From Chthoniobacterales bacterium (GTDB taxonomy: Bacteria > Verrucomicrobiota > Verrucomicrobiia > Chthoniobacterales > Chthoniobacteraceae), in contig JBBQJR010000001.1 in NCBI GenBank assembly GCA_038326125.1, forward strand, positions 1 to 32,033: 32,033 bases of DNA. The letters are read 5' to 3'. The first letter of the stretch is position 1; each line of letters opens with the position of its first letter. The notes under the pieces are model-generated. The model ran no database searches and was not told where the DNA came from. It saw only the letters and a program-made list of their open reading frames with translations. The position numbers and the translations under genes are program-made. Of the stretch, positions 1,616-31,429 are shown one piece after another.

Positions 1616-1672
1616 GGGAGAATTTTCGGGCGGAAGGATCTGGCGCGACGAGAGGCGGAGACAAGCGCCGAA

Positions 1673-2104
1673 CTATTTTGCCGCCGGCTTCGCCTCGACC
1701 GGCTTGCCCGCCGCCTTCCAGCCGTTGAAGCCGGACTTCAGATGGAAAATCTCCGCGCCTTTTTGCGCCGCCGCGATTTTCACGACGGCCTTCGAACTGC
1801 GGTTGCCCGCCGCGCAATGCACGATCAGCGGCTTGTCCGCCGGCAGCGCGGCAACCTTCGTTTCAAAATCATCGCCGAGAAAATCCACGTTCACCGCTCC
1901 CGGGATGTGCCCTTCCGCAAATTCATCCGGCGTCCGCACGTCCACCACGAGCGCTGTTTTTTCCTGCATCAGTTTCGCCGCCTCGTCCGGCGTCACGTCC
2001 TTCACCGCTGCGGCCGTCGGCAATTTTTGCGTCGGCTCGATGGCCGTCGCGTGCGGCGCGAAATTGAGTGAGACGGCGAGAGCGAGGGCGGCGAGGATTT
2101 TCAT
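1673..2104 (-). CDS. Exported single-domain rhodanese-like sulfurtransferase
   Basis: I chose the internal ATG at 2102-2104, giving MKILAALALAVSLNFAPHATA (signal peptide). The rhodanese core is VVDVRTPDEFAEGHIPGAVNV, with active-site loop HCAAGNRS. Confidence 0.85.
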   Translation of the reverse strand: MKILAALALAVSLNFAPHATAIEPTQKLPTAAAVKDVTPDEAAKLMQEKTALVVDVRTPDEFAEGHIPGAVNVDFLGDDFETKVAALPADKPLIVHCAAGNRSSKAVVKIAAAQKGAEIFHLKSGFNGWKAAGKPVEAKPAAK

Positions 2105-6665: not shown

Positions 6666-6758
6666 CGCGGCTTTACGGCGTGGGCGCGCTCGGCAGAGCG
6701 CGGCGGCGCGGGCCTCCGCCCGGTGCCTAACGGTGCTTCTGTTCGCGCCCAGAGCGTC

Positions 6759-6965
6759 TCAGCGCCATTCGAGTTTGTCGATGAACAGGTCGAACTCGCG
6801 CAGCTTTTCATGCTGCTCCTTGAGCGCGACGAGCACGCCTTCGTTCGTCTTTTCCCGCGCGGTCACCATGCCCATCGAGAAGCCGTGGCGTTCCTTTTCG
6901 CCGGGTTTTTTCCAGTGGTAAAAAACGCGGGCCCGGAAAGTTGGTGCGCTGTTTTCGTCGCTCAT
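6759..6965 (-). CDS. Small hypothetical protein (68 aa)
   Basis: The ATG at 6963-6965 gives MSDENSAPTFRARVFYHWKKPGEKERHGFSMGMVTAREKTNEGVLVALKEQHEKLREFDLFIDKLEWR. Third-position GC bias matches neighbouring genes. I recognise no family. Confidence 0.5.
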   Translation of the reverse strand: MSDENSAPTFRARVFYHWKKPGEKERHGFSMGMVTAREKTNEGVLVALKEQHEKLREFDLFIDKLEWR

Positions 6966-7013
6966 GGGCTGATGAATCAAATAATTGCGCCGCGGCGGCA
7001 AGGACGGAGCGCG

Positions 7014-9398: not shown

Positions 9399-9623
9399 AG
9401 GTAAAAATTTTCGGCGCGGGAGAGTGGACGCGCCGATGCCGGGATGCAATCGCAACCTCACATCCCCCCTATTCGCAGCGGCGGAAACCCCAAGTTTGAA
9501 CAGAAGCGTGTCGTGAAAACTCGCTGCAGAAACGACTCAGCCGTGACCCGAAGGTGCGCTCGGAGGTGCAAATCTGCGCGAACTTCCGCCCGCGCCTACG
9601 GACGGAAGCGGCGCTCGCCGCAG

Positions 9624-11135
9624 TTAGAACAGCGACTGGTTGAGATACGGATTCAACGGCCCCTCGGCGTAATCTTCCCGCGGATACGGGATGAAATCGG
9701 TGTTGTGGAACTGCTGCGCGACTTCGTCGGCGAAGAACGCTCCGAGCGTGGTGACGCCGATGGCGCGTTCCGTTTCATACACGAGTCCGTGCGCCTTGAG
9801 CGCGTCGATCTTGCCGCGGAAAACTTCGTCCATCGGCAGGCCGGTGAGACGGCGGTAATTCGCCATGCGCACGTTGCGGTTTTTGATCGGCAAGACGATG
9901 GCCCAGCGCGCCTGATCGTCGGCGTTGCGCCGGTAGCCGCGGTTGATCGGCAGATGTCCGCTCTCGATGGACGAGTAGTATTCGTCGAAGTTCTGCGTGC
10001 AGAGCGCGAAGCGGTCGCGCAGGCTGCTGAACGCGGTTAAGCCAATCCCGATCTGGTCGAACTGCACGCAGCACTGGTTGTGCGCGTACACCGAATAGTC
10101 GCCCCGACGGCGCGAGAAGACGCGGCGCAGGTTTTCGGTGTAGCCGTAGTGGTTCAGCATGAGGATGGCCGCCTGCTTCATGATGAACTGCGTCTCGTTG
10201 TCGGGATATTCCTCCGGTTTGTTGTTGACGTAGTTTTTCACCGCGCCCTGGTGGTCGCCGTAAGCCTCGACCTTCAGACGATAGAGCTGAATCTCATGCA
10301 CACCGAGCTGGCAGGCTTCCTCGATCACGTCGAGCCAGTTGTCCACAGTCTGTCCGGGGTAGCCGAAAATGAACTCGATGTTGACCATGAAGCCCGCATC
10401 CAGCGTCTCGCGAATCGCCTGCAGCGCCTCGTTCTTGCCGTGGTGGCGGCCCATTTTCTTGAGGATGGACATGTTCAGCGATTGCACGCCGATGGTCAGC
10501 CGGTCCACGCCGTATTCGCGCATGAGCGCAAGGCGCTTTTCGCCATCGGGACCGATGAGCGTGTTCGGATCGACGTCATAGTTAAACTGACGGCAAATCG
10601 AGAGGTCCACGCGCTCGACGAAGCCGACGAGAAACCGCTCAAACTGATCCGTGGTGAGGAACGTCGGCGTGCCCCCGCCGACGAGGACCGAGCGCGCCTT
10701 GATGCGATCCACGCCGAGGCGGTCGCGCCAGATATCCGTCTCCTTCATGAAGGCGTTGATGTATTTCTGCTTCTCGTCCACCTGCGGGCCGAGTTTCACG
10801 GGATAGTGGCAGAAGACGCAGTGCGAATTGCAAAACGGCACGTGCGCATACACATCCACCGCGCCATCGGCGGGCAGCGTGTAGCCTTCGAGCAGCTCGT
10901 CGTCGCTCATCGGCGGATACATCGTGATCGGCGGATAGTGGACGGACGGGTAAAAATCGCCACGCTTGTTCACGAGGCCGGCGTCGCGCACGCGGTGGAA
11001 ATCCTCCAGCCGCTCCTTCGCCTTTTCCACGAGCGCGGCGCGGTCGAGCGGGCCAGCGTCCCACGTCGGCGGAAGTTCGTGAGGCGCGAGGAGCTTGGGG
11101 TTGATGGCTGTGGGGTCGAGCAGTGCTGCGTTCAT
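9624..11135 (-). CDS. Radical SAM protein of the HemN/HemW/class C methyltransferase-like family
   Basis: HVPFCNSHCVFCHYP (CxxxCxxC, 10809-10832), VLVGGGTPTFL and a long HemN_C-like C-terminal region. The ATG is at 11133-11135. Confidence 0.85.
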   Translation of the reverse strand: MNAALLDPTAINPKLLAPHELPPTWDAGPLDRAALVEKAKERLEDFHRVRDAGLVNKRGDFYPSVHYPPITMYPPMSDDELLEGYTLPADGAVDVYAHVPFCNSHCVFCHYPVKLGPQVDEKQKYINAFMKETDIWRDRLGVDRIKARSVLVGGGTPTFLTTDQFERFLVGFVERVDLSICRQFNYDVDPNTLIGPDGEKRLALMREYGVDRLTIGVQSLNMSILKKMGRHHGKNEALQAIRETLDAGFMVNIEFIFGYPGQTVDNWLDVIEEACQLGVHEIQLYRLKVEAYGDHQGAVKNYVNNKPEEYPDNETQFIMKQAAILMLNHYGYTENLRRVFSRRRGDYSVYAHNQCCVQFDQIGIGLTAFSSLRDRFALCTQNFDEYYSSIESGHLPINRGYRRNADDQARWAIVLPIKNRNVRMANYRRLTGLPMDEVFRGKIDALKAHGLVYETERAIGVTTLGAFFADEVAQQFHNTDFIPYPREDYAEGPLNPYLNQSLF

Positions 11136-11186: not shown

Positions 11187-12236
11187 TTAAATCAGCGGCG
11201 CTTTGCCGAAGCGCAGGTCCGTTTTGCCGACCATGTCTTCGCAGCGCGCAAAGCCGGGCGAGCAGCGGTCCGTGGAATAGATCGGGAACAGCTTTTTGAA
11301 CTGCTCGGGCGTGCCATCGTGAATCGTCACGGTGTTCGCGCCGGCCATCAGTCCGAAAACCTGTCCGCCCGGCTTGCCCCGCTCGAGGCAGCTCGTTGTG
11401 GGCATCAGCCGCTTCGGATACATGATGCGCATGAGGGCCATTTGGTTGAGCGCGATTTCCACATCGCCCATCGGCTGGTCGTGGTAGTTGCACATTTCGC
11501 CGGGGATGAAAACGGTGCAGCTCATCATCGAGAGATCGAATTTCCCGAGCAGTTCAATGTCATCAATCACGTCGTCGAGCGACTGCCCAGGCATGCCGAC
11601 CATGTTGCCGGTGCCGACTTTGTAGCCGATGTCCACGAGATCCTGCAGGCAGGCGAGGCGCTGGTCGAGCGTGTCGCTCGGCTTCCAAGTCGAGTAGAGC
11701 GACGGGCTCGACGATTCAAATTTCAGGATGTAGCGGTCCGCACCCGCTTCCTTCAGCCGGACGTATTGGTCGTGGCTGAGATTGCCCATGCACAGGATGA
11801 TTTCGAGATCCACGTGGCGCCGCTTGATTTCCGTGCAGCACTTCGCGGCGTAATTGACGAACGTATCCGAGTCGTTTTCGCCTGACTGCAGCAGGATCAC
11901 CCGGCGGCCCATCGAGTATAAAAAGTCCACCTGCTCCATCAGCGGATCCATCTTGATCACGTAGCGCTTCAGCTTCGATTCCTTGGCCATGCTGCAGTAG
12001 TTGCAGCTCTGCTGGCAGACATTCGAAAGCTCGATCACGCTGCGCGTCTCGACCTCTTTCGCGGGCCAAACGGCATCGCGCCGCTGCCGAGCCAGCGCAA
12101 ACAGCTCTGCCTGCTGCGCCCCCCTCGCCAAGAGGCCTCGCCGGAGCGTCTCTCTCGAAAAATTTCCGGCCGAAAGCGCTGCCACCAGCGGCTGTGTCGT
12201 GCCAACAGTTTCGTCTTTAGTCAGGGTGGTGATCAT
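11187..12236 (-). CDS. Radical SAM protein of the HydE/PylB/BioB-like family
   Basis: IELSNVCQQSCNYCSM (CxxxCxxC, 11994-12017), VILLQSGEN, EAGADRYILKFESS and GTGNMVGMPGQS. A GGAGG lies 8-12 nt upstream of the ATG at 12234-12236. Confidence 0.85.
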   Translation of the reverse strand: MITTLTKDETVGTTQPLVAALSAGNFSRETLRRGLLARGAQQAELFALARQRRDAVWPAKEVETRSVIELSNVCQQSCNYCSMAKESKLKRYVIKMDPLMEQVDFLYSMGRRVILLQSGENDSDTFVNYAAKCCTEIKRRHVDLEIILCMGNLSHDQYVRLKEAGADRYILKFESSSPSLYSTWKPSDTLDQRLACLQDLVDIGYKVGTGNMVGMPGQSLDDVIDDIELLGKFDLSMMSCTVFIPGEMCNYHDQPMGDVEIALNQMALMRIMYPKRLMPTTSCLERGKPGGQVFGLMAGANTVTIHDGTPEQFKKLFPIYSTDRCSPGFARCEDMVGKTDLRFGKAPLI

Positions 12237-13395: not shown

Positions 13396-15663
13396 TTAGA
13401 ACCTAAGCTCCATGCCCACACTGACGCCGTGCGCAAAGAAGTCCGTCGTATTGGAGAGGCGCGACGGGCTCGTCGTGCTCACGCGCGGGTCCGCTTGGTT
13501 AAAGGTCTGTCCTTTGGGAATCTCGCGATTTATCTCATTACCCGGTCGCATCACATTGCTGTAGTAGAGAAAGTCGTAGGCCAGCGTCGCCCGCAACCGC
13601 GGCGACAGCGCATAGCCAATCTTAATCTGCGCTTCCGGCACCACCGCAAACTTATCCGACGAAGTGCGCCCCTCATTCGCAGGCTGCGCAAAAACGCCCT
13701 GCGTCCCCGTGGCATAGGGCGCGCTGAAATTGATCGAATAAAACCCGCCGGCCACATTTTGTATTTCATGGCTCACACCGAGCGACACCCGCGCCGTCAC
13801 ATCCACCGAGAGCCGGCCGGTCGAGTAACTCTCGCGCAGTCCCAGCGTCCCGCCGATGAACTCGTTTTTCGTCGAAAATCCATCCGTCACCACGCCAAAC
13901 TGCCCCCGGTAAAACCCCGACACTCCTTGGATTTGCGCGGTCAGGTTTAGGCTCTCACTGAGTTGCACGTAACGTACTCCCGCCAAGGCCGACAGTTCCC
14001 ACGACGGCTTGCGGTACAGACTAATGACCCCATTTAACTCCGCGCCCCATAGCTCCAGCTTATTCACCACCAACGCCGCACCGGCGATAACTCCGCTGCC
14101 GCGCGAGCGCGCCGGATCATTCGGCAGGGAGTAAGGCAGGCTGTCCTCGCCGGCGCGCACGGTCATGGTTCCGATCGTGTAGGGAATGCTGTTATAGACC
14201 GGAATGCCGAGCACCGGATTGCCAGTGTCATCGCCGTGCGAACCATAGCCTGCACTTTGTTGCTGCAAGGCAAATGCGCTCGCCTCCACGCCGAATTTGT
14301 GGTCGTCGCCGAAGGAATAGCCAAGCTTCAGCCTCAGGCCCGAGAAATTTTGAAACCGCTGATTGTCGTCCCCGCCCTGCGCCGGCGCGTGCGGTGCACC
14401 GTAGAGCACCGTGGAGTCCGCTCCATTTTGCGCCGGCACGCCGAGCAGTCCGTGATGCGTCGTCGCCACCGGCCCCGCCGAGATCAGCGGGATGGAAAGT
14501 GGCGCGTCCTTCACCCACCACATGAGATATTCCGCACCGCCGTAAAATCTCGAGGTCGGTGCCGGCGCCCACATCGGTGCCGCATCGGGACCGCTGACCA
14601 CGGACTTATAAGACTTATGCGCGGATGTCGGACTTCCCGCCTTCTCCGCGCCCGGACCAAACATCCAGGTAAGGCCCGCCCGCAGCCGGGGCCCCGGCAC
14701 GGCCTGCAATCCGCTGTTCGAGATACTTACCGGAAAATCGACGCCGATGTGCGCGGTCAGCCGGTCCTTCCAAGTGTAGGTCAGCTTCGGTCCAAAATAG
14801 ACAACCGTGAACCCCGTCGAATCCACCGGCTGATCCTTGTAAGTATCCGATCCCTTGTGTTCGCCCGAAATGGCCGCCTCCAACGCCAGCTTATAGGAAG
14901 GGTCGGAAAGCAGGAAGTAACCCGGCCCGCCGTCCCAAGTCGTGTCATTGGCAAACCTATAGCCATAGTCGCCCTCCGTGCAGATGGCATACTGCACCGA
15001 AGCATTGAAAAACGCGCGGTTGTGCGAGTAACGAAAGCTCGTGCCGAGGCGCGCATCAAAGGACCCGCTGCCAAGGGTAAGATCATAGCCGTGGATGGCG
15101 CTTTCCGCTGAGTTATTCCCGTGCGTATGCCCGTGCGTCGTGCCAAAGGAATCCAAAAGCGCACTGAGCCGCCTCGTCTCATCCGCAAGCTGCGAAGTAT
15201 CTCCCGTCGGAAACTTCAGCCCGCCCAGCAGGCTCCAAGTAAAGGAACTGTCCGCCGTGTCCTTGCGCAAAAGCAGCAGCCTCCCGACGAGGATCGCATC
15301 TCCGAGCCCCGATTCACTCCCCTGCTCGGTCCCGGTGTCACTTGGCCGGCGGAAGGTCCGGTGGATGTATGGAATATTCGCCTGCAGGCTAAAATGGTCG
15401 TTGAAGTTATATCCGAGGATGAACTGCGTGGTCGAACTCTCCAGACTCTGATTCGCCACGTTCGGAATCTCGCGCCCGTCAAGTTGCAGGCTGCCAAAGC
15501 TCGTGAACTGCTCCGCCGCCCCGGTGAACCAACTCCCCGCCGCCCCGCCGCCGGGATGGTCTCCCGTGTAAATCGCGCACAGTTCGCAAGCCTCCGCCCG
15601 CTGCATCCCTCCCGCCAGCACCAGCGCCGCCGCGCCGAGAATCCCGCCCGCCAGCGCTTTCAT
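13396..15663 (-). CDS. Outer-membrane protein fusing an N-terminal MetA/phenol-degradation-like barrel to a C-terminal BBP7-like barrel
   Basis: The ATG at 15661-15663 gives MKALAGGILGAAALVLAGGMQRAEA (signal peptide). The N-terminal half has GLGDAILVGRLLLL...LLGGLKFPTGDTS and LTLGSGSFDARLG. The C-terminal half has FYGGAEYLMWWVKDAPLSIPLIS...GLRLKLGY. The protein ends in the aromatic terminus VGMELRF. Confidence 0.75.
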   Translation of the reverse strand: MKALAGGILGAAALVLAGGMQRAEACELCAIYTGDHPGGGAAGSWFTGAAEQFTSFGSLQLDGREIPNVANQSLESSTTQFILGYNFNDHFSLQANIPYIHRTFRRPSDTGTEQGSESGLGDAILVGRLLLLRKDTADSSFTWSLLGGLKFPTGDTSQLADETRRLSALLDSFGTTHGHTHGNNSAESAIHGYDLTLGSGSFDARLGTSFRYSHNRAFFNASVQYAICTEGDYGYRFANDTTWDGGPGYFLLSDPSYKLALEAAISGEHKGSDTYKDQPVDSTGFTVVYFGPKLTYTWKDRLTAHIGVDFPVSISNSGLQAVPGPRLRAGLTWMFGPGAEKAGSPTSAHKSYKSVVSGPDAAPMWAPAPTSRFYGGAEYLMWWVKDAPLSIPLISAGPVATTHHGLLGVPAQNGADSTVLYGAPHAPAQGGDDNQRFQNFSGLRLKLGYSFGDDHKFGVEASAFALQQQSAGYGSHGDDTGNPVLGIPVYNSIPYTIGTMTVRAGEDSLPYSLPNDPARSRGSGVIAGAALVVNKLELWGAELNGVISLYRKPSWELSALAGVRYVQLSESLNLTAQIQGVSGFYRGQFGVVTDGFSTKNEFIGGTLGLRESYSTGRLSVDVTARVSLGVSHEIQNVAGGFYSINFSAPYATGTQGVFAQPANEGRTSSDKFAVVPEAQIKIGYALSPRLRATLAYDFLYYSNVMRPGNEINREIPKGQTFNQADPRVSTTSPSRLSNTTDFFAHGVSVGMELRF

Positions 15664-15858
15664 CCCGGCTCTACCGTCCGACTGCGAAACTCTCGCGGCA
15701 CCGCTCGGGCACCGGACATTTTGGGATGCGGGCCGGACGAGGCCAGGGGGGATGGAGGAACATTTGGGTCGCATGAGCGCGCACAGTATTTTCGGTCTTC
15801 ACGAATGCAATTGGCAATGTGAGCGCGGGCTCCCAAAAATAAGTTCCCCGCGTTTTGC

Positions 15859-17214
15859 TCACCGCTTCGCAGGCTCCGCGGCTTTCGCCCCGAGGCAAAT
15901 CAGGTGCTTCACCCCGCGGACGAAAATTTGGCGCTGCGCGAACGCCGGGCTCGCGAAAACTTTTTCGCCGAGCGCCGATCGGCCGAGTTCCTTAAATTCA
16001 CGCCCGGCTTCGACCGCGATCAGCGTCCCGCTGCTCGTGATGAGCACCAGCCTGCCGCCCACGATGCTCGGCGACGCATTGCAGGCTTCGTCAAAATCGT
16101 GCTCCCACTGTTTCTTGCCGTCCTTCGCGTCGTAGCAGGTCGTCACGCCCGCGTTGTTCACCACGAAAATCAGCTCGCCGTTGCTCACGGGGCTCGTCAC
16201 GTCCGGGATGCCGTCCTCCGCGATCCAGCCGAGATGCGTCTTCGTCACGTTGCCCTGGCCGTCGGGGCGGATGGCTTGCAGCTTGTTTGCCGGGCTCACG
16301 ATGAAAAGCGTGCCGCCCGCGAAGACCGGCGACGGCGTCACCTCGCCGTCGAGACAATCCGCGCGCCAGAGTTCCGCGCCGTCCTTCGGCGCGTAGGAAA
16401 TCACGAATGGGTTTGCGAGGGTGACGAGCTGCGATTTTCCGGCGGCGGCGAAAATAATCGGCGTCGCCCACGAAGCACCCACGGCGCGCGGCTGCTGCCA
16501 CACGACCGCGCCGGTCGCGCCGTCGAACGCAGTCAGCTTGCTCAGTTTGTCATCCACCTCGCCCTGATCGAACTGCACGATCACGCGATCCTCCCAAGTG
16601 AGGAGCGAAGTCGCGTGGCCGTATGGATTCTTCGGCGTGCCGAGAAATTTCGCCCACGCGACGCTGCCGTCGAAATTGACCGCAGCGAGATCGCCATTGG
16701 AAAACATCGCATACACGCGCCGCCCGTCGGTCGCGACGGTGCCCGCGGCCATGCCGCACTGGTCGGGGACTTCGGGATTCGTGTCGGGACTGCCCGCGGT
16801 CTTCGGCACGACGGTCTGCCAGAGCAGTTTTCCCGTCGAGGCATCGAAGCACATCACCACGCGCTTCGCCTCGTCGCCGCCGGAAAGAAAGACGCGGCTG
16901 CCCCACACCACGGGCGAACTGAAACCGGCCACCGGCACGGCGACGGACCACGCAATGTTCGCGCCGGTCTGCACATCGCACGTCAGCGGCACATCGCACT
17001 CCGCGCACACGCCGCCGCCCTCCGGCCCGCGGAAGCGCGGCCAGTTCGCGCGGTATTCCTCCGGCGATGGCAGGTCCGCCGCGAGCGCGACTGCGAGGCA
17101 AGCGAATGCGGAGAGCGAACGGATGAAATTTTTCCAAAAACACGCACCGCGATCAAAGAAGGACCACGGATTTCGCGGATGGCACGGATGGGAAATTGGT
17201 CTGCACGCAATCAT
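15859..17214 (-). CDS. Exported PQQ-like beta-propeller repeat protein. Start uncertain.
   Basis: Leader FIRSLSAFACLAVALAADL, then NWPRFRGP and repeated propeller blades (FDASTGKLLWQ, FDGATGAVVWQ, KDGAELWR, KDGKKQWE). The nearest in-frame ATG is at 17212-17214. A GTG at 17145-17147 would give an ideal leader but is one nucleotide out of frame (see findings). Confidence 0.8.
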   Translation of the reverse strand: MIACRPISHPCHPRNPWSFFDRGACFWKNFIRSLSAFACLAVALAADLPSPEEYRANWPRFRGPEGGGVCAECDVPLTCDVQTGANIAWSVAVPVAGFSSPVVWGSRVFLSGGDEAKRVVMCFDASTGKLLWQTVVPKTAGSPDTNPEVPDQCGMAAGTVATDGRRVYAMFSNGDLAAVNFDGSVAWAKFLGTPKNPYGHATSLLTWEDRVIVQFDQGEVDDKLSKLTAFDGATGAVVWQQPRAVGASWATPIIFAAAGKSQLVTLANPFVISYAPKDGAELWRADCLDGEVTPSPVFAGGTLFIVSPANKLQAIRPDGQGNVTKTHLGWIAEDGIPDVTSPVSNGELIFVVNNAGVTTCYDAKDGKKQWEHDFDEACNASPSIVGGRLVLITSSGTLIAVEAGREFKELGRSALGEKVFASPAFAQRQIFVRGVKHLICLGAKAAEPAKR

Positions 17215-17247
17215 CCGCACCATCCGCGCAATCCGTGCAATCCGTGG
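17164..17247. repeat. Imperfect long hairpin built from tandem 9-mers (CATCCGNNN/AATCCGTGN), between the divergent propeller genes
   Basis: Left arm 17164-17191 has three units: ccacggatt tcgcggatg gcacggatg. Right arm 17212-17247 has four units: catccgcac catccgcgc aatccgtgc aatccgtgg. The outer 9 bp pair perfectly and the inner units pair in more than one register. Confidence 0.65.
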
Positions 17248-17411
17248 TTGAATGCATCCTCGCCATCCGAGGGACGCGGAATGTCGCACCGTCGGGATCG
17301 GCTTGTCTGCGTCAGGAGTGTTCATGGCGGATCGGAAGATTTTCGGAAATGGGGCTACCATCGTCGCGGCTGCGGAGTTGTTCACGGCGCACCGCATCGG
17401 AATTTTCCACC

Positions 17412-19046
17412 ATGACCCACCCAGCCGCCCTGTCTCTCGCAATGTCCTTTTTTCTCGCGCTGTCCGCGCACGCCGCCGACTGGCCCGCGTGGGGCGGCGC
17501 GGATCTCGGGCGGAACATGGTCTCCGCGGAGAAGAATTTGCCCGACACTTTCAAGCCCGGCGAAAAATCCGCGAAGGGCGACGGGATGCTGCCGGGCACG
17601 ACGGAAAATGTCCGCTGGGTCGCGAAGCTCGGCAACCTCATCTGCGGCAATCCCACGGTCGCGAACGGCCGCATTTTTGTCGGCACCGACGACGCCAGCC
17701 TGCAGGGCGACGCGCGGCTGAAACGCACGAAAGGCGGCATGGTCTGGTGCCTCGATGAAAAGACGGGCAAGATGCTCTGGCGGCTGCCGGTGCCGGTGCG
17801 ACCGAAGGATCAGCTCCCGAAGGACGCGCACTACGGCCAGCAGAGTCTCGGCGTGTGCTCCGCGCCGACGGTCGCCGGCGATCGCGTGTATGTCGTCACG
17901 AGTGCGTGCGAAATTTTGTGCCTCGATGTGCATGGGCAGGCGAATGGGAACGACGGCGCGTTTCAGGACGAGGCGAAGTACATCGCCGGCGCGAACAACC
18001 CACCCGCGACGCTGGAAAAAACCGACGGCGACATCATTTGGAAATACGATCTCGTGAGCGAACTCGGCATCTGCCCGCACGATGTCGCGGCGTGCTCGGT
18101 GCTGGTTGATGGCGATATTTTATACTGCACTTCCGCGAACGGCGTGAACCACGAGCACACGTTTTGCCTGCGGCCAGACGCGCCGAGCTTCATCGCGCTG
18201 AATGCGAAAACCGGCAAGCTGCTCGCGACCGACACCGAAGACCTCGGCCACACGATGTGGCACTGCTTGTGGTCGCCGCCGACGGTCGGCGTGGTGCATG
18301 GAAAACGGCTCGTGTTTTTCGGCGGCGGCGACGGCGTGTGCTACGCGTTCGCGGCGCTGACTTCCGTGCCGGAGCAGCCGGTGCATTTGCAAAAAGTGTG
18401 GATCTACGATTGCGATCCGCCGAACTACCGCGACCCACTCGGCGACGGCAAACCGTTCAATTACTACGTCGGCGACAAGCGCAAAAAGTACACGACGAAC
18501 CAGAACGACGGCACCTTCCTCGGGCCGAGCGAAATCATCGCGTCGCCCGTCTTTCACGAGGGGCGGGTGTACTGCACCATCGGCCAGGATCCGATGCACG
18601 GGCGCGGGCGCGGCATCCTGCATTGCATCGATGCTTCGAAGACTGGCGACATCACGCACACCGGCTGCGTGTGGAAGTACGACGGCATCGAGCGCAGCAT
18701 CAGCAGCGTGGCGATCCGCGACGGCCTGCTCTACACAGCGGACCTCGCCGGTCGCGTGCATTGCCTCGATGAAAAAACCGGCAAGCTGCAATGGCTGCAC
18801 GACACCGAATCCGAAACGTGGAGCACGCCGCTCGTCGCGGACGGAAAAGTGTACGTCTGCACGAAGAAGAAACTCGTGACCCTCGCCGCCGGCCGGGAGA
18901 AAAAATTGCTCTCGGAAGTCACGCTCGGCTCGAGCGCCTACTCCACGCCCGTCGCAGCAAACGGCACGCTTTTCGTCTGCTCGCAGAGCTACCTCTGGGC
19001 CGTGCAAAAAGGCGCGACGCCCGTGCCGCTCGCCGCGGGCGAGTAG
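17412..19046 (+). CDS. Exported PQQ-like beta-propeller repeat protein
   Basis: The ATG at 17412 gives MTHPAALSLAMSFFLALSAHA/ADWPAWGG. Repeated blades include LDEKTGKMLWR, NAKTGKLLAT and LDEKTGKLQWL. Confidence 0.85.
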   Translation: MTHPAALSLAMSFFLALSAHAADWPAWGGADLGRNMVSAEKNLPDTFKPGEKSAKGDGMLPGTTENVRWVAKLGNLICGNPTVANGRIFVGTDDASLQGDARLKRTKGGMVWCLDEKTGKMLWRLPVPVRPKDQLPKDAHYGQQSLGVCSAPTVAGDRVYVVTSACEILCLDVHGQANGNDGAFQDEAKYIAGANNPPATLEKTDGDIIWKYDLVSELGICPHDVAACSVLVDGDILYCTSANGVNHEHTFCLRPDAPSFIALNAKTGKLLATDTEDLGHTMWHCLWSPPTVGVVHGKRLVFFGGGDGVCYAFAALTSVPEQPVHLQKVWIYDCDPPNYRDPLGDGKPFNYYVGDKRKKYTTNQNDGTFLGPSEIIASPVFHEGRVYCTIGQDPMHGRGRGILHCIDASKTGDITHTGCVWKYDGIERSISSVAIRDGLLYTADLAGRVHCLDEKTGKLQWLHDTESETWSTPLVADGKVYVCTKKKLVTLAAGREKKLLSEVTLGSSAYSTPVAANGTLFVCSQSYLWAVQKGATPVPLAAGE

Positions 19047-19062
19047 CCGCGACGCAAGAACT

Positions 19063-20088
19063 TTACCGCTCGCGCTCGAGCGAGCACGCGTGGCACGCGA
19101 AGCCCGCGCCGAACGAGACGAGCCACAGCCGATCCGGCGTGCTGCCGTTCGCGGCCAGCGCGCGCTCCGCGGCAAAAAGCACGGACGGGCTGCTCATGTT
19201 CCCGCAATCGCGGAGCACGCCCTCCGCCTCGGCGAGCTCGTGGCCGGGCAGGCGCGAGCGGATCGCGGAGAGCACATCGCGCCCGCCGGAGTGGCTGATG
19301 ATCTGCGGCGCGGCGTGGCCATTCGCACCGGGATAAAGTCCCGCGACCGCGTCGGCCGCGACGGACGGCACGGCTTTGTGCAGTTGGTTGCACAGCTTGC
19401 CATCGCGATTCACAAAACGAATTTTCTCGCGCTCCGCGGGAAGATGCAGCGACTGGAATTTGCCGAACCGCCAGCCGCCGTCCGAAGCGCCATCGAGGAC
19501 CACCGCAGCCGCACCGTCGCCAAAAAGACACAGGCTGATGAGCACGCCGGGATCATCATTCACGTAGAATGCCGCCGAGCAAATCTCCACCGCCACGACC
19601 GCCACGCGGTGACTCGGATGGACGGCGAGATAATTGCACGCGGAACGCAGCGCCGGAATCGCCGCACCGCACCCCGCGCCCGTGACGTCCACGAGATACG
19701 TCGTCGGCGAAAGTCCCGCGGCTTCCGCGATGTGGCTGCTCAAACCCGGGCAGAGATAGCCGGTGCAGGTGCAAACAAAAAGCGCGTCCACATCGCCCAC
19801 TCCGGCCTTTTCCAGCGCCGCGGCCAGCGCGCGCGTTCCGAGCCGCGCAGCTTCGCGCTCGTACGTTTCGCTGAGTTCCTGCGCGCTGCGGCCGACAAGA
19901 TTGCCCAGCTTTTCCGCCGCAAAATGCCGCCGGTCGATCCCGGATTCGCCGAGCAAAACCATTTCCAAAATATTCTGCGAGCGCTGCGTGAGGTCGCGCA
20001 CAAACGGCGCGTCGCGCAATCCCTCCCAGCACTCGCGCTGAGTCCATGAACGTTCCGGGAGGGCGGTGGCGATGCTGGCGAGCTTCAT
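19063..20088 (-). CDS. Type III polyketide synthase (chalcone/stilbene synthase superfamily)
   Basis: Cys/His/Asn triad contexts are FVCTCTGYLCPG, ISHSGGRDVL and LRDCGNMSSPSVLF. The C-terminus is WLVSFGAGF. The ATG is at 20086-20088 (MKLASIATALP). Confidence 0.9.
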   Translation of the reverse strand: MKLASIATALPERSWTQRECWEGLRDAPFVRDLTQRSQNILEMVLLGESGIDRRHFAAEKLGNLVGRSAQELSETYEREAARLGTRALAAALEKAGVGDVDALFVCTCTGYLCPGLSSHIAEAAGLSPTTYLVDVTGAGCGAAIPALRSACNYLAVHPSHRVAVVAVEICSAAFYVNDDPGVLISLCLFGDGAAAVVLDGASDGGWRFGKFQSLHLPAEREKIRFVNRDGKLCNQLHKAVPSVAADAVAGLYPGANGHAAPQIISHSGGRDVLSAIRSRLPGHELAEAEGVLRDCGNMSSPSVLFAAERALAANGSTPDRLWLVSFGAGFACHACSLERER

Positions 20089-20149
20089 TCGGCACAATCT
20101 GTAATCCAAACGGCGGCGGGTTGCGTAAAGTATTTGCCGGGTCGCATGG

Positions 20150-21160
20150 TCATCTCACTTTACGGTAAACGGATTCGAAGCGGACGAGGCCGCACGAAAT
20201 CAGCGTTGTGGCGACTTTTCTCCCGACGCGATTCATGAGCAGCGACTGCAGCACCCGCGCCCATCGCAGTCGGCGCGCAAACATTTTTCGATGCGCGCAG
20301 AAAATTTCCACGGCTGCGTCCTCCCACTTCGCCGCACCTTCGCTCCAGCGCGCGAGCGGCTCGACCGCGGCCAGCGCGCTTTGAAAAGCCATCGTCATCC
20401 CGTTGCCCGTGAATGGCGGAATCATCGCGGCGGAGTCGCCCACGGTCACGCGTCCATCGGGCCGCGCGCGCTGCCAGCCGAGGGAAAAATGGCTCACGCC
20501 TTTCAGCGATCCGGGCACCATCTGCGCGCCGCGCAAACGCTCTGCGAGACTGGCGAGACCGGCTTCCTGCGTGGCCACGGCGAGCGCGTTTCCGCCCTGC
20601 ACACTCTCGCCGCGCCGGAAGAGACCGCAGACATTCACGCGCGAATTTTCCACGCGCGTGAGGCCGACGTAGCCGCCGTTTTGCAGATGGATTTCCAAAT
20701 CCGCGCACAGCGTGAGCCCCTCGAAATGCGCCTTGAGTCCCAGCCAGCCGGACGCCTGCTTCGCGCGGCCCGCCGCCCACACGACGCCCTCGCCCGCTTT
20801 TTCCAGTCGCTCGCCGCACCGGAGTTCACCACCCGCCACCACGAAACGATCCGCGAGCGCGGCATCCAGCCAATGCCGGCTGAGCCCGTACGCCGCCGAG
20901 GGCAGCGAGCGATTCCACATCGGCCGCTGGCCGTCGAACCACGCCGTCGTCGTGTGCTTTTGCGCGGCGGAAAAAAGATCGCGAATGCCGAGGGCATCGA
21001 GGTCCGCATCCGCAATCCCGGAGATGAATTCACCGCACACGCGATGCCGCGGATAGCTCCCCGCCTCGGTCAGTTTCACGGGCACGCCGCGCGAACGCAA
21101 CGCGATGCCGAGCGAAAGTCCGGCGAGCCCGCCGCCGGCGATGGAGACCGGCCGCATCAT
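20150..21160 (-). CDS. FAD-dependent oxidoreductase/monooxygenase (geranylgeranyl-reductase-like fold)
   Basis: MMRPVSIAGGGLAGLSLGIALRSRGVPVKLTE (GxGxxG) and the GD motif VTVGDSAAMIPPFTGNGM. Its ATG overlaps the upstream stop in an ATGA (21157-21160). Confidence 0.85.
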   Translation of the reverse strand: MMRPVSIAGGGLAGLSLGIALRSRGVPVKLTEAGSYPRHRVCGEFISGIADADLDALGIRDLFSAAQKHTTTAWFDGQRPMWNRSLPSAAYGLSRHWLDAALADRFVVAGGELRCGERLEKAGEGVVWAAGRAKQASGWLGLKAHFEGLTLCADLEIHLQNGGYVGLTRVENSRVNVCGLFRRGESVQGGNALAVATQEAGLASLAERLRGAQMVPGSLKGVSHFSLGWQRARPDGRVTVGDSAAMIPPFTGNGMTMAFQSALAAVEPLARWSEGAAKWEDAAVEIFCAHRKMFARRLRWARVLQSLLMNRVGRKVATTLISCGLVRFESVYRKVR

Positions 21161-21801
21161 GCACGCACGGCACACATGCGATACGCGCCGAGGAAAGTCG
21201 CCGCGATTTTCCACTGCCAGCCGCCGAGACCGAGCGCGCGCGGCAATTCCTCGCCGAGAAAACCCGCGCGGATGCTCGTCCGCATATCGTGCCGCGTCAC
21301 ATGGCTCAGCAGCGCGAGCACGGTGAGCAGAGCGCTCTGCGCGAGGTGGAGCCGGCGGCGCGCGGGCTCGCTCGCGAGAAAAATCCGGCAATTCGCCGGG
21401 AGCTTTTTTCCGAGATGCGCGAGCGCCTTGTCCTCAAAATGATGCAGAAAAAGATTCGCAATCACGACCTCCGCCTCGGGCAGCGGAGCGGCGAAAATGT
21501 CCCCCTGCACCCAGGCGGAATCCTGCGGCCAGTCCGCCGGACGCGGCGCAAGATCGAGACCCGAGATTTGCGCGGCCTGGCAGATTCCCTGCGAGACGAG
21601 CCTCTTGCCGAAGGTGCCGTCGCCCGCACCCAGTTCCAGCACGCGCCAACCGGGCTGGATGCTTCGCCGCACTTCGCCGGCGAGGAAGCGGTGGTTACCC
21701 ATGATGGCATTGATCAGCCGCAATTCGCGGCGGCTCCGTCGCGCCGCAGGATCGTCCGCACGCAGCGTGTCGAGGATTTCCGGTTCGATGCAGCGCAGCA
21801 T
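21157..21801 (-). CDS. Class I SAM-dependent methyltransferase
   Basis: RVLELGAGDGTFG (motif I) and VIANLFLHHF. I chose the ATG at 21799-21801 (MLRCIEPEILD) because codons upstream become AT-rich at the third position. Confidence 0.8.
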   Translation of the reverse strand: MLRCIEPEILDTLRADDPAARRSRRELRLINAIMGNHRFLAGEVRRSIQPGWRVLELGAGDGTFGKRLVSQGICQAAQISGLDLAPRPADWPQDSAWVQGDIFAAPLPEAEVVIANLFLHHFEDKALAHLGKKLPANCRIFLASEPARRRLHLAQSALLTVLALLSHVTRHDMRTSIRAGFLGEELPRALGLGGWQWKIAATFLGAYRMCAVRA

Positions 21802-23651: not shown

Positions 23652-23913
23652 GGCCGATTGGGGTGGAGTTTCATCTTGCGCAGAGCGCGCCGCCGAAAAG
23701 GCGCAAGCGCCGGAGGAACATGCCGGGAAAAAACGCGGATGCATTGCGAAAAATCTGCGCTGATCCGCAGTGGTGCCGCGGTGGTCTGCGGCTGGAAAAA
23801 TCAGTGCGGCAAATTGTCAGCGGACGCTCAAATCAAATTGCGAAAACCATCCCCGTGCCATCACGCTCTGCGCGAAACGAACCCGCGCTGATCACCTCAC
23901 AATTCGCCCTCCC

Positions 23914-25671
23914 ATGAACCGCCTCCTCCTCGCCTGTCTCGCGCTCCTGCCGCTTTTCGCCATCGCGGAAACGCCGCGTCCCAACGTCGTCGTGCTCCTC
24001 GCGGACGATCAAGGCTGGGGCGATCTCAGCTTCAACGGCAACACGAATATCTCCACGCCGAACATTGATTCGCTGGGCAAAAAGGGCGCGGTGCTGGAGC
24101 GCTTCTACGTGTGCCCGGTGTGCTCGCCGACGCGCGCGGAATTTCTCACCGGCCGCTGGCACCCACGCGGCGGCGTGTGGAATGTCTCGCTCGGCGGCGA
24201 GCGGCTAAATCTCTCGGAAAAAACGATCGCGGACACTTTCACCGCGGCGGGCTACGCGACGGCGGCATTTGGGAAATGGCACAATGGGATGCAGTATCCG
24301 TATCACCCGCGCGGTCGGGGCTTCGGCGAATACTACGGCTTCTGCTCGGGCCACTGGGGCGACTATTTCGACGCGCCGCTGGAGCACAACGGCGAACTCG
24401 TGAAAGGCGAGGGCTACATCGCGGATGACTTCACGAATCACGCGCTGAAGTTCATCGAGGAAAACAAGGAGCGTCCGTTCTTCTGCTACGTGCCGTTCAA
24501 CACGCCGCACTTCCCCGCGCAGGCGCCGGATGAATTTTTTGCGCCCTTCGCAAATGCCGATCTGAAAATGCGCGCGCGCAATCCGAAGCAGGAGGACCTC
24601 GCCGAGACGCGCGGCTCGCTCGCGATGACGGCAAACCTCGACTGGAACGTGGGCCGCATCCTCCGCCGCCTCGACGAACTGAAGCTCGCGGAAAACACCA
24701 TCGTGATTTACTTCAGCGACAACGGCCCGAACACCTGGCGCTGGAACGGCGGGATGAAAGGCAAGAAAGCGGGGACCGACGAGGGCAGCGTGCGCGCGCC
24801 TTTCTTCATCCGCTGGCCCGGAAAAATCGCGGAGGGAGAACGCGTCACGCAAATCGCCGGCGCGATCGATCTGCTGCCGACACTCGCGGATCTCTGCGGC
24901 ATTCCGATCATTTCGCAAAAGCCGCTCGACGGCATCAGCCTTCGCCAGTTGCTCACCCACAACATCAAAAGCGGATGGCCCGAGCGCATGATTTTCTCCC
25001 ACTGGGCGGGAAAAGTGAGCGTCCGCACGCAGCAGTATCGCCTCGATGCGGGCGGGCAGCTTTTCGACATGGTCGCCGACCCCGTGCAGGATCACGACAT
25101 TGCCAAAGAAAAACCCGAGGTCGCCGCGCGCCTCGCGAAGGCCGTGGCCGAGTACCGTGCGGATGTCCTGCCGGGAATCGCGGACAAGGAACTGAAGACG
25201 TTCACCGTCGGCTACCCCGAGTTTCCGACCACGCAGCTCCCCGCGCGCGACGGCCTCCCGCACGGCGGCGTGCAGCGCAGCGCGAAGGCGCCGAACTGCT
25301 CGTTCTTCACGAACTGGACGAAGGCCGACGACAGCATCACGTGGGACATCGAGGTCGCGACTGCGGGGAAATACGAGGCCATCGTGTACTACACCTGCCC
25401 AGCGGCGGATGTGGGATCGAAAGTCGAGCTGAGCTTCAACGGCAGCCGCATCGAGAAGACGATCACTGAGCCGCACGACCCTCCGCTTCACGGCGCGGAA
25501 CACGACCGCGCGAGACGGGAAAGCGAGTCCTACGTGAAAGATTTCAAGCCGCTCTCATTCGGCACGCTCGATCTCCAGCCCGGCCGCGGCCGGCTCACGC
25601 TCAAGGCGCTCAGCATTCCCGGCCAGCAGGTGATGGACGTGCGGCTGATCCTGCTGAAGCTTGTGAAGTGA
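23914..25671 (+). CDS. Exported formylglycine-dependent sulfatase with a C-terminal beta-sandwich-like extension
   Basis: The ATG at 23914 gives MNRLLLACLALLPLFAIA. Further blocks are VVLLADDQGWGD, the CSPTRAEFLTGR signature (24121-24135) and GKWH. Confidence 0.9.
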   Translation: MNRLLLACLALLPLFAIAETPRPNVVVLLADDQGWGDLSFNGNTNISTPNIDSLGKKGAVLERFYVCPVCSPTRAEFLTGRWHPRGGVWNVSLGGERLNLSEKTIADTFTAAGYATAAFGKWHNGMQYPYHPRGRGFGEYYGFCSGHWGDYFDAPLEHNGELVKGEGYIADDFTNHALKFIEENKERPFFCYVPFNTPHFPAQAPDEFFAPFANADLKMRARNPKQEDLAETRGSLAMTANLDWNVGRILRRLDELKLAENTIVIYFSDNGPNTWRWNGGMKGKKAGTDEGSVRAPFFIRWPGKIAEGERVTQIAGAIDLLPTLADLCGIPIISQKPLDGISLRQLLTHNIKSGWPERMIFSHWAGKVSVRTQQYRLDAGGQLFDMVADPVQDHDIAKEKPEVAARLAKAVAEYRADVLPGIADKELKTFTVGYPEFPTTQLPARDGLPHGGVQRSAKAPNCSFFTNWTKADDSITWDIEVATAGKYEAIVYYTCPAADVGSKVELSFNGSRIEKTITEPHDPPLHGAEHDRARRESESYVKDFKPLSFGTLDLQPGRGRLTLKALSIPGQQVMDVRLILLKLVK

Positions 25672-25753: not shown

Positions 25754-28699
<2,946 letters not shown>

Positions 28700-28724: not shown

Positions 28725-29962
28725 ATGCTCGCATTCAATCGCATTCTGATTGGCATCGTTGCTTTGCTGACCTTCATCTCAATGCGTTCCGCATCTGCGG
28801 AAAAGCCTGTAAATAAAGCCGCTGCGGATAGGTCGCTGGTCCGCGAGCAGGGCGAAGTGGACAGCTTGATCGCAAGAGCGGACAGCGTGGAACTGGGCAA
28901 GATTTCCCCGCGTATTTTTCAATTCGCGGAAAAATTCCTCGCGGCGAAGCGCGACCCCGAGGCGAAGCGGTATCTGGAAATTGGTCTGCGCGGAAACTCC
29001 TGGGCACTCGAGGAGCAACTGACCCTCGGTGAACTTCTCGCGCGCTCGAGCCAGCCGGATGCGCTGCGCGAAAAGGCGGCGATGGCCCTGCGCTTGGGCG
29101 AAGAGGATGCTGTGCTCAAACGCGCCTCCGCGCTCGCCGGTCTGCCGTTGCCCGCGGCACCCGTTGCCTTTGAAAAAATCACCGGCGACGAGATCACGCT
29201 CATCCTCGTGCCGATCGGCGAGCCGGGCATTTTTGCGGTGGAGGATCTGCGCGATATTCTCGCCAGACGTCTCGGGATCAAAACCGTGGTCGCCCACTTG
29301 GACGTGAAAATCCCCCCGGCCAGCCGGACGGCGAAATCGCAATGGCTGGCCAGGACGCGAAAGCAAATTCTGGAGACGGTGCAGGAAAGGCCCGAAACCG
29401 CCCTGCAGTTGGGCCGCATGGGATTCACGAAGGCGCAATTGGAAAAGGACGACGATGCGCTGTTGTCGCTGGTGCGCAAAACGACTGAGGCGGAACAGGG
29501 AACGGATGCGCTGAAGCGGCTTGACGCGGACGTGGAAAAGCTGGCGCGGAACAAACAGTGGGATGACATCGGCATGCTGACGGCGATCCAGATTGCGACG
29601 ATTGGACGCTGCGGTCCGAAGCGCTTGGTGATGGGCGTTACGTCGTGCGATCTCTTCGGCGACAAGAGCAACTACCTGTTTGGCGTGGCCGCCACCGGCG
29701 GATTTGTCGGTGTGATTTCCACGCATCGCTTCGGGCATCGTTTCAACGAAGAGCCACCCAAACGCGAGCGGCTCAAGGAGAGGCTGCTCAAACAGGCGTT
29801 ATGCACGTTCGGTTTCAGCCTCGGTGTGCCGCGGTGCGCCACGCCGGAATGCGCGAGGGCATATCCTCAGAGCCTGCAAGAGCACGACCTGAAACCATCG
29901 ACGCTCTGCACGGAGTGCAGGAGGGGATTCGAGACCGCAATGGGCTGCAAACTGCCGACACC

Positions 29963-29966
<4 letters not shown>
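28725..29966 (+). CDS. Exported or membrane-anchored archaemetzincin (peptidase M54)-like protein lacking the catalytic His/Glu residues
   Basis: The ATG at 28725 gives MLAFNRILIGIVALLTFISMRSASA. M54-like blocks are ITLILVPIGE, SNYLFGVAATGGFVGVISTHRF and CTFGFSLGVPRCATPECAR-x16-CTEC (29802-29918). The last block matches the spacing of HEXXHXXGX3CX4CXM..CXXC but with H, E, H and M replaced. The stop overlaps the next ATG. Confidence 0.7.

Positions 29967-31429
<1,463 letters not shown>

Follow-up and report, generated by a model that had tools for sequence, protein, structure and literature searches.

An archaemetzincin-like protein family of PVC bacteria with predicted export signals and a dismantled catalytic site

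Introduction

The stretch of Chthoniobacterales DNA analyzed here (the window; 32,033 nucleotides, GenBank assembly GCA_038326125.1, contig JBBQJR010000001.1, positions 1 to 32,033) carries at 28,725 to 29,966 a gene for a protein whose C-terminal part resembles the archaemetzincins, the peptidases of family M54. The gene lies between one for a PSCyt/PSD1 protein (DUF1549/DUF1553) and one for a DUF1501 protein, and the locus raises the question of what a protein with the core of a protease but none of its catalytic residues does, and whether it does so together with the products of its neighbors. A preliminary description had read it as a pseudo-protease coupled to the DUF1549/DUF1553-DUF1501 pair. 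We favor, with a probability of roughly 60%, the reading that it is a non-catalytic binding or scaffold protein of the cell envelope. Its family is large and conserved throughout the Planctomycetes-Verrucomicrobia-Chlamydiae (PVC) group. The location of its gene between the PSD1 and DUF1501 genes is lineage-specific and not part of the family's function.

Inactive homologues of archaemetzincins are on record. CarG of Myxococcus xanthus works by binding CarD, to which it is translationally coupled (PMC8156234; PMC3427221). Of the catalytic residues only the Glu is missing from CarG, which keeps the His ligands (HQx2Hx2Ex2HC...) and binds two zinc atoms. CarG acts in the cytoplasm as a transcription cofactor, is found only in myxobacteria, and is always paired with CarD, whose gene lies directly upstream (PMC8156234). 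DUF6775 is an archaeal, Thi4-associated family with an archaemetzincin-like fold that lacks HEXXHXXGXXH and has a Cys-rich metal site (PMC13325395). In these phyla, a genome has numerous PSCyt/PSD1-DUF1501 pairs, often close to sulfatases (Kamneva 2012, PMC3542564; He 2017, PMC5615132).

Results

Relationship to archaemetzincins

Profile matches and a predicted structure demonstrate that the C-terminal part of the protein is homologous to archaemetzincins and has, in the model, the archaemetzincin fold. Residues 302-401 match Pfam PF07998 (Peptidase_M54) at profile positions 97-191 of 194 with 37.8 bits (E 2.7e-9), above the gathering cut-off of 24.4, and this is the only Pfam match at E ≤ 10, DUF6775 being absent. 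The NCBIfam model NF033823 (archmetzin) matches at E 3.5e-22, with 79.1 bits under its 145-bit cut-off, and the CarG equivalog NF033824 (Myxo_non_zincin) reaches 65.1 bits against a cut-off of 250. A phmmer search of Protein Data Bank (PDB) sequences returned the archaemetzincins 3zvs, 4axq, 3lmc, and 2x7m at E 5e-10 to 7e-7. The AlphaFold2 model, built with 23 homologues, has a mean predicted local distance difference test score (pLDDT) of 87.4 and a predicted template modeling score of 0.79. When this model was compared with the PDB by Foldseek, the top five matches were all archaemetzincins (E 2e-7 to 2e-6, target template modeling (TM) scores 0.64-0.83), and AfAmzA (3zvs) matched over its whole 158-160-residue chain with a target TM of 0.83 and a root mean square deviation of 3.1 Å. 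The M54 homology proposed in the preliminary description is thus borne out.

Archaemetzincins of the same fold (MEROPS M54; AfAmzA 3zvs/4axq, MkAmzA 2x7m, MlAmzA 3lmc, and human AMZ1/AMZ2) share with the protein a sequence framework of GVT..D[LI][FY], N[FY][LV]FG.A, V[IL]S..R, ER[LV][LV]K, G..LG, and [DE].D.KP before CxxC, which appears in the window protein as GVT..DLF, SNYLFG.A, VIS..RF, ERLLKQA, G..LG, and E.D.KP. Other landmarks are ITLILVPIGE at residues 157-166, YLFGVAATGGFVGVISTHRF at 317-336, and CTFGFSLGVPRC...CTEC at 360-398 (nucleotides 29802-29918). AfAmzA is a single domain of 158-160 residues; the window protein adds a predicted signal peptide, a TPR domain at the N-terminus, and a helical insertion of about 90 residues. 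The gene and the parts of its product are as follows.

28725..29966, + strand: gene for the TPR and pseudo-archaemetzincin protein, stop included (open reading frame, Pfam PF07998, homologues, and the ratio of nonsynonymous to synonymous substitution rates, dN/dS)
28725..28799, + strand: predicted Sec-type signal peptide, residues 1-25 (read from the sequence; family survey; low pLDDT at residues 14-29)
28806..29138, + strand: TPR-like helical domain, residues 28-138, six helices (AlphaFold2, pLDDT >90; Foldseek; Pfam matches of relatives)
29193..29300, + strand: N-terminal part of the archaemetzincin fold, residues 157-192 (AlphaFold2; Foldseek)
29331..29597, + strand: family-specific helical insertion, residues 203-291, about 90 residues between strands 2 and 3 (AlphaFold2; Foldseek)
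29613..29942, + strand: C-terminal core of the archaemetzincin fold, residues 297-406 (Pfam, residues 302-401; phmmer to 3zvs and 3lmc)
29802..29918, + strand: degenerate active-site and Cys motif (alignment with AfAmzA; family column counts)

The active site across the family

The published archaemetzincin motif is HEXXHXXGXXHCX4CXMX17CXXC; its third His binds zinc, and its four Cys make up a Cys4 zinc knuckle (Graef et al. 2012, PMC3427221). The corresponding segment of the window protein, aligned with that of AfAmzA (HEIGHVLGLKHC-SNNC-VM...CRECA), reads C360-T-F-G-F364-S-L-G367-V-P-R370-C371-x4-C376-A-R378-x16-C395-x2-C398. The preliminary description had recognized four substitutions (H to C, E to T, H to F, and M to R), all of which hold. 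The strings that it quoted are present, but the motif it used left out the third zinc His, which is also lost (H to R, R370). Hence, in contrast to archaemetzincins, the protein has other residues in place of all three zinc His, of the catalytic Glu, and of the Met-turn Met, and neither the HEXXHXXGXXH nor the Met-turn (CXM) of functional M54 peptidases is found. The Gly and the four conserved Cys (C-x3/4-C ... C-x2-C) are present, as had also been noted; G367, C371, C376, C395, and C398 align to AfAmzA, and the Cys spacing is the same, with 16 residues between position 378 and C395. The alignment demonstrates that all five residues needed for metzincin catalysis are gone, and the window protein is therefore predicted to be unable to act as a metzincin protease.

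The same holds throughout the relatives of this protein. A word-indexed search gave 26 other clusters at 50-78% identity, nearly all of about 400-440 residues. A profile of 409 positions was then run against 1.84 billion representative proteins (clusters at 50% identity), yielding 3193 matches at E ≤ 1e-3, 1211 at E ≤ 1e-10, and 234 at E ≤ 1e-30; the best 150 nearly all cover the whole profile and are about 400 residues long. We made full-length alignments with 22 homologues at 49-78% identity and with 150 representatives, and counted the motif columns over 172 sequences that cover the motif and were aligned to the profile. The residues of the window protein and the column counts (of 172) are these.

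First zinc His: C360; S 145, A 16, C 4, H never
Catalytic Glu: T361; S 120, T 40, E never
Second zinc His: F364; F 97, H 29
Motif Gly: G367, kept
Third zinc His: R370; R 158
Met-turn Met: R378 (C376-A-R378); R 159
Four Cys: C371, C376, C395, and C398, kept; all four present in 150
D388: D 171
K390: K 168

HExxH occurs in 0 of the 172 sequences, and HExxHxxG is likewise absent, so the loss of His and Glu in the window protein is no local sequence error. As judged from these columns, the loss of the catalytic residues is ancestral and fixed family-wide. The family consensus is S-[ST]-x-G-[FH]-x2-G-[VI]-P-R-C-x2-P-x-C-A-R-A-Y-P-x-S-L-x-E-H-D-A-K-x4-L-C-x2-C. The window protein has every part of the family layout (signal peptide, TPR domain, split M54 fold, insertion, and signature), with C instead of S at the first position of the signature. 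Database names of its relatives are absent or read "predicted Zn-dependent protease" (JGI).

The four Cys are probably structural: they would form either a Zn(Cys)4 knuckle or a pair of disulfides made after export; other metzincins carry two disulfides at the Cys-knuckle positions (PMC3427221). In a subclade of 15 members, three of the four Cys are lost together (PRPTDPTSARSYP...MSEAC), and the R, ARAYP, and EHD.K positions are kept (P0073, P0083, P0097, P0100, P0104, P0109-P0111, P0114, P0121, P0124, P0134, P0141, P0145, and P0173). This joint loss suggests that the Cys cluster is structural and dispensable for the family's role.

Conservation extends over all three modules of the protein, from which the invariant polar residues E126, R201, Q278, and R353/R370/R378 come. 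E126 in the TPR domain is 100% conserved across the family; R201 (97%) and Q278 (99%) are assigned to the insertion, where W279 is near-invariant; and in the core R353 is 100% conserved, with R370 and R378 conserved across the family. Around the former active site, R370, P374, R378, ARAYP, E386, H387, D388, and K390 are 80-99% conserved.

Such conservation could also be that of a neo-functionalized enzyme, in which E386-H387-D388, S332, D309, or the Arg cluster would carry out another reaction on an anionic or peptide substrate. We consider this improbable. Besides the conservation around the former site, it can draw on H387, which is family-specific (archaemetzincins have V or L there), and on the His that 29 of the 172 sequences keep at the position of the second zinc His. 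However, D309, S332, D388, K390, and R353 are conserved in true archaemetzincins as well and are more likely structural, and a site formed by these residues is putative only. The fusion partners are, moreover, interaction repeats of the kind typical of scaffolds. In the longer members, the extra Pfam domains are only TPR arrays, HEAT repeats (P0065, 716 residues), ankyrin repeats (17 in P0149, 1262 residues), one transglutaminase-like core (P0088, about 1005 residues, with TPRs), and one DUF6263 (P0063); Pfam revealed no transport or enzymatic fusion partner in them. P0103 (about 1005 residues) resembles P0088 in length and domain position.

Domain architecture and predicted export

The protein begins with MLAFNR-ILIGIVALLTFISM-RSASA, followed by EK, which reads as a signal peptide with probable cleavage after ASA; the AlphaFold2 model has low pLDDT at residues 14-29. 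A hydrophobic N-terminal segment with a median length of 15 residues is present in 117 of 125 full-length family members, with a mean net charge of +1.6 in its N-flank and -0.9 in its C-flank. The segments usually end in AxA-like (AQA/Q, AFA/E, ASA/E) or lipobox-like (LSGC, LFGC, LSAC) sequences. In sequence, the family's N-termini fit signal peptides of the Sec or lipoprotein type better than they fit membrane anchors, and we infer that the protein is located in the periplasm or envelope. Archaeal and human AMZs are cytoplasmic and have no signal peptide.

The preliminary description had put a helical region of about 130 residues behind the N-terminal signal; both are found, the helices covering about 110 residues (28-138) and being TPR-like. 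Foldseek gave weak matches to IpgC, the N-terminal domain of Nup358, and designed TPRs, ranked after the archaemetzincins, and in distant family members Pfam TPR models match the region equivalent to this domain. The protease fold itself starts with the strand ITLILVP (158-164), a helix (169-183), and the strand KTVVAH (186-191) in the model. It is then interrupted by the helical insertion at residues 203-291, a feature missing from the preliminary description that is apparent from Foldseek alignments of 245-260 columns against targets of 158-191 residues. At E ≤ 10, neither Pfam nor NCBIfam had a significant match to the N-terminal domain or the insertion; one to prefoldin (E 0.07) was dismissed as coiled-coil noise.

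Gene neighborhood

The genes on either side of the pseudo-archaemetzincin gene, and its junction with the second of them, are the following.

25754..28699, + strand: upstream gene for a 981-residue protein with PSCyt1, PSCyt2 (DUF1549), and PSD1 (DUF1553) (Pfam, 49, 268, and 236 bits)
29963..29966, + strand: ATGA stop/start overlap with the DUF1501 gene (sequence; same overlap in locus L001)
29963..31429, + strand: downstream gene for a 488-residue DUF1501 protein (Pfam PF07394, 491 bits)

The reading frame of the pseudo-archaemetzincin gene is intact and encodes 413 residues from the ATG at 28725 to the TGA at 29964-29966. The longest possible frame begins at 28650. We preferred the start at 28725, which leaves a gap of 25 nucleotides from the upstream stop, because the longer frame would overlap the upstream gene by 50 nucleotides and because the orthologue at L001 has the same relative start. 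Between the PSD1, pseudo-archaemetzincin, and DUF1501 genes, a simple scan gave no site resembling a promoter or terminator; the three probably form one transcript. All three products have export signals, Sec-like in the first two and of the twin-arginine translocation (Tat) type in the DUF1501 protein, whose motif TRREFI near the N-terminus was read from the translation. Immediately 5′ of the PSCyt/PSD1 gene is a sulfatase gene (PF00884 and SGSH_C, 23770-25671, + strand), of which L001 has two; its reading frame has a signal-peptide-like MNRLLLACLALLPLFAIA 48 codons in, so the true start is probably near 23914. The sulfatase-PSCyt neighborhood matches that of freshwater Verrucomicrobia (PMC5615132).

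The order PSD1, pseudo-archaemetzincin, DUF1501, the 25-nucleotide gap, and the ATGA overlap recur in one Chthoniobacterales metagenome-assembled genome (MAG; JBBRPQ010000017, L001/L010), in which the three proteins are 80%, 78%, and 91% identical to those of the window. A short contig (L002) carries the same protein as L001/L010. Against the L001 orthologues dN/dS is 0.118 for the pseudo-archaemetzincin gene, 0.19 for PSD1, and 0.14 for DUF1501, values that, as estimated from this one pair of coding sequences, demonstrate strong purifying selection on the pseudo-archaemetzincin gene.

We sampled further loci from the encoding contigs of nine homologues, one scan of genome contigs, and one scan of metagenome contigs; the last, whose peptide patterns were very specific, gave only 5 loci for that reason. 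The PSD1 and DUF1501 proteins of the window were searched by tblastn against the first 20 loci, and L021-L023 were judged by their Pfam gene tables. The surroundings of the homologues are listed here.

L003, JGI metagenome contig: after an RHS toxin gene, before Fic
L004/L005/L016, GCA_016307145: start overlaps the dnaE stop by 4 nucleotides (L004/L005 8001-8004)
L006/L013, Akkermansiaceae MAG: after purH, before lnt
L007/L014, another Chthoniobacterales MAG: unrelated neighbors
L008, JGI metagenome contig: adjoins rsmE-dnaJ-grpE
L009, JGI metagenome contig: overlaps a Vgb-lyase-like gene (6001-6004), followed by a type I restriction-modification system
L011, Verrucomicrobiota MAG: no PSD1/DUF1501 match
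L012, Chthoniobacter MAG: just a DUF1501 gene 5.3 kb off, opposite strand
L015/L020, Pirellulales MAG, 28% identity, same degenerate motif: 25 nucleotides after clpX (L015 5754-5779)
L017, metagenome contig: no PSD1/DUF1501 match
L018, short metagenome contig (3 kb), 31% identity: no PSD1/DUF1501 match
L021, further short contig (3 kb), additional to the 12 independent loci and outside the tblastn set: no PSD1/DUF1501 gene, neighbors without a Pfam match on record
L022, JGI metagenome contig: unrelated neighbors

In 0 of the 12 other independent loci is a PSD1 or DUF1501 gene adjacent to the homologue, so the coupling to DUF1549/DUF1553-DUF1501 postulated in the preliminary description does not extend across lineages. 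With one close relative excepted, the sampled loci thus show the lack of synteny that the preliminary description had itself named as a refutation. The DUF1501 gene of L012 was judged a chance occurrence. Because only the 78%-identical relative has the linkage and the 12 other loci do not, we regard it as lineage-specific. Members of the family commonly adjoin unrelated genes closely or overlap them. The ATGA overlap at 29963-29966 is present as first reported and conserved in L001, but the overlaps with dnaE and the Vgb-lyase-like gene indicate that start/stop overlap is a general habit of these genomes and not evidence for a dedicated stoichiometric complex; the preliminary description had taken it to argue for stoichiometric co-production.

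Among the sampled loci no other neighbor recurs except RHS/YD toxin genes. Three of 13 independent loci have a large RHS/YD-repeat toxin gene some 1-6 kb upstream of the homologue (L003, 973-7002; L006, 1-107, the end of a 4015-residue gene; L009, 1-2391). In genomes rich in RHS genes, chance could account for this; alternatively, the gene may have a tendency to adjoin variable islands.

Could the protein nevertheless serve the PSCyt/PSD1 (DUF1549/DUF1553)-DUF1501 module as a third subunit, dedicated to it and co-produced in stoichiometric amount by translational coupling? The close packing of the three genes without promoter- or terminator-like sites, the same order and overlap in the 78%-identical MAG, and the export signals of all three products would accord with such a subunit. 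So would the translational coupling of CarG to its binding partner CarD and the additional genes on record in DUF1501 clusters (PMC3542564). We nonetheless give the idea little credence. The arrangement is found in 1 of 13 other independent loci, that of the closest relative only, and is absent from the other Chthoniobacterales, Chthoniobacter, Akkermansiaceae, Verrucomicrobiota, and Pirellulales loci, and the overlap with DUF1501 has its like in overlaps with unrelated genes. Furthermore, PSD1/DUF1501 pairs are normally adjacent without a pseudo-archaemetzincin gene and have many copies per genome (PMC3542564), and chance adjacency is therefore easy. A narrower version, in which a periplasmic pseudo-archaemetzincin, ancient and PVC-wide, was recruited in this lineage as a translationally coupled accessory subunit of a PSCyt/PSD1-DUF1501 module, its peptide-binding cleft with two Arg for the zinc site clamping one of the two partners, would parallel the CarD-CarG pair, and we see it as a long shot. 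If true, it would be a first handle on the assembly of the DUF1501 module.

That the motif is an artefact, whether because the gene is a pseudogene in decay or because a sequencing error removed HEXXH from an active protease, has nothing in its favor beyond the absence of the motif in one sequence and is ruled out for practical purposes by the degenerate motif of all 172 aligned members from many samples, the intact reading frame, the dN/dS of 0.118, and the confident AlphaFold2 model.

Other genes of the window

Elsewhere in the window, a gene for a BBP7-type putative beta-barrel porin (792 residues) adjoins two for BamB/PQQ-like beta-propeller proteins on opposite strands. Two radical S-adenosylmethionine (radical-SAM) genes adjoin each other, and further on a gene like those of type III polyketide synthases (PKS) or ketoacyl synthase (KAS) III stands beside one with a weak FAD_binding_3 match (E 1.8e-7). 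The radical-SAM pair and the PKS/KAS III-like pair may be small biosynthetic clusters. Two long open reading frames have no Pfam match at E ≤ 1e-3. The window is GC-rich and has long open reading frames on the opposite strand too (for example, 7014-9461), and the frames of either strand are putative genes only.

13396-15774 (- strand), 15859-17442 (- strand), and 17196-19046 (+ strand): porin and two BamB/PQQ-like genes
9624-11135 (- strand) and 11187-12236 (- strand), 19063-20109 (- strand) and 20150-21391 (- strand): radical-SAM genes, then PKS/KAS III-like and FAD_binding_3-like genes
173-2071 (+ strand): open reading frame of 632 residues, no Pfam match
6315-9404 (+ strand): open reading frame of 1029 residues, no Pfam match

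Discussion

We favor a non-catalytic binding or scaffold function for the window protein because it has an N-terminal TPR domain, because the fusion partners of its relatives are mainly repeats, because the non-catalytic parts of the M54 cleft are retained, and because its invariant polar residues come from all three modules. On this reading, it would be exported by the Sec pathway by means of a signal peptide that is then cleaved off, and it would combine a small TPR domain with a complete M54 fold that carries the helical insertion. What is retained of the former substrate cleft (D309, N316-x2-F-G, and the former active-site helix) and the TPR domain would jointly hold an extended partner, peptide or protein. 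R370 and R378 take the places of the third His and the Met; they would occupy the former zinc site and could bind a carboxylate. In this Chthoniobacterales lineage, the gene lies within the PSCyt/PSD1-DUF1501 operon and is probably co-transcribed with it. There is precedent, by analogy, for such a binding role in CarG, which acts purely by protein binding.

Several points weigh against this interpretation. The signal-peptide call comes from a hand-made survey of hydrophobicity and charge and not from a trained predictor. The sampled loci show no conserved gene neighbor that would point to a target. Contact of E126, R201, and Q278 with the former active site, and with it the convergence of conserved residues from all three modules on that cleft, is putative. 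New catalysis through E386, H387, D388, S332, and D309 retains a small share of the probability, and the operon order with its conserved ATGA in two genomes leaves room for a lineage-specific link to PSD1/DUF1501.

How does the protein compare with the inactive homologues already known? Like CarG (NF033824, "non-proteolytic archaemetzincin-like protein"), it is a bacterial archaemetzincin homologue, for the window protein with a predicted lack of protease activity and a probable role in protein binding. Unlike CarG, it has lost the whole catalytic zinc site, with no His at the three positions, appears to be exported, has extra domains, and lacks a fixed neighbor; the gene upstream of it encodes PSCyt/PSD1 and not CarD_CdnL_TRCF. 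DUF6775 likewise combines an archaemetzincin-like fold with loss of the catalytic motif and retention of Cys, but its metal site is of the Cys3His type, and its genes, which are archaeal, cluster with those for thiazole synthase. The neighboring genes are those of described PSCyt/PSD1-DUF1501 modules (PMC3542564, PMC5615132), with a typical PSCyt1-PSCyt2-PSD1 gene, a Tat-signal DUF1501, and an upstream sulfatase; described modules contain no M54-like gene, whereas the lineage of the window has one interposed.

The preliminary description considered a pseudo-protease of this kind undescribed, which holds, as far as our literature searches went, for the exported family, on which we found no paper, and not for inactive archaemetzincin homologues as such, since CarG and DUF6775 are documented. 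A review of pseudopeptidases (PMC11266112) does not mention M54. What is new is a family of pseudo-archaemetzincins in PVC bacteria that is exported, by the signals of its N-termini, and bears a TPR domain and an insertion.

The finding does not advance the question of what the PSCyt/PSD1-DUF1501 module does. It does mean that the annotation "predicted Zn-dependent protease" (JGI) or Peptidase_M54 is functionally wrong for hundreds of PVC proteins, and that surveys of degradomes or metabolism in Verrucomicrobia and Planctomycetes should leave family members out of their peptidase counts. The family offers a clean natural case in which the catalytic zinc site of a metzincin has been wholly replaced, two Arg standing in it, with the Cys cluster kept, and it should be useful for studying the evolution of pseudo-proteases. 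It also extends the short list of inactive M54 homologues, so far CarG and DUF6775, to exported proteins.

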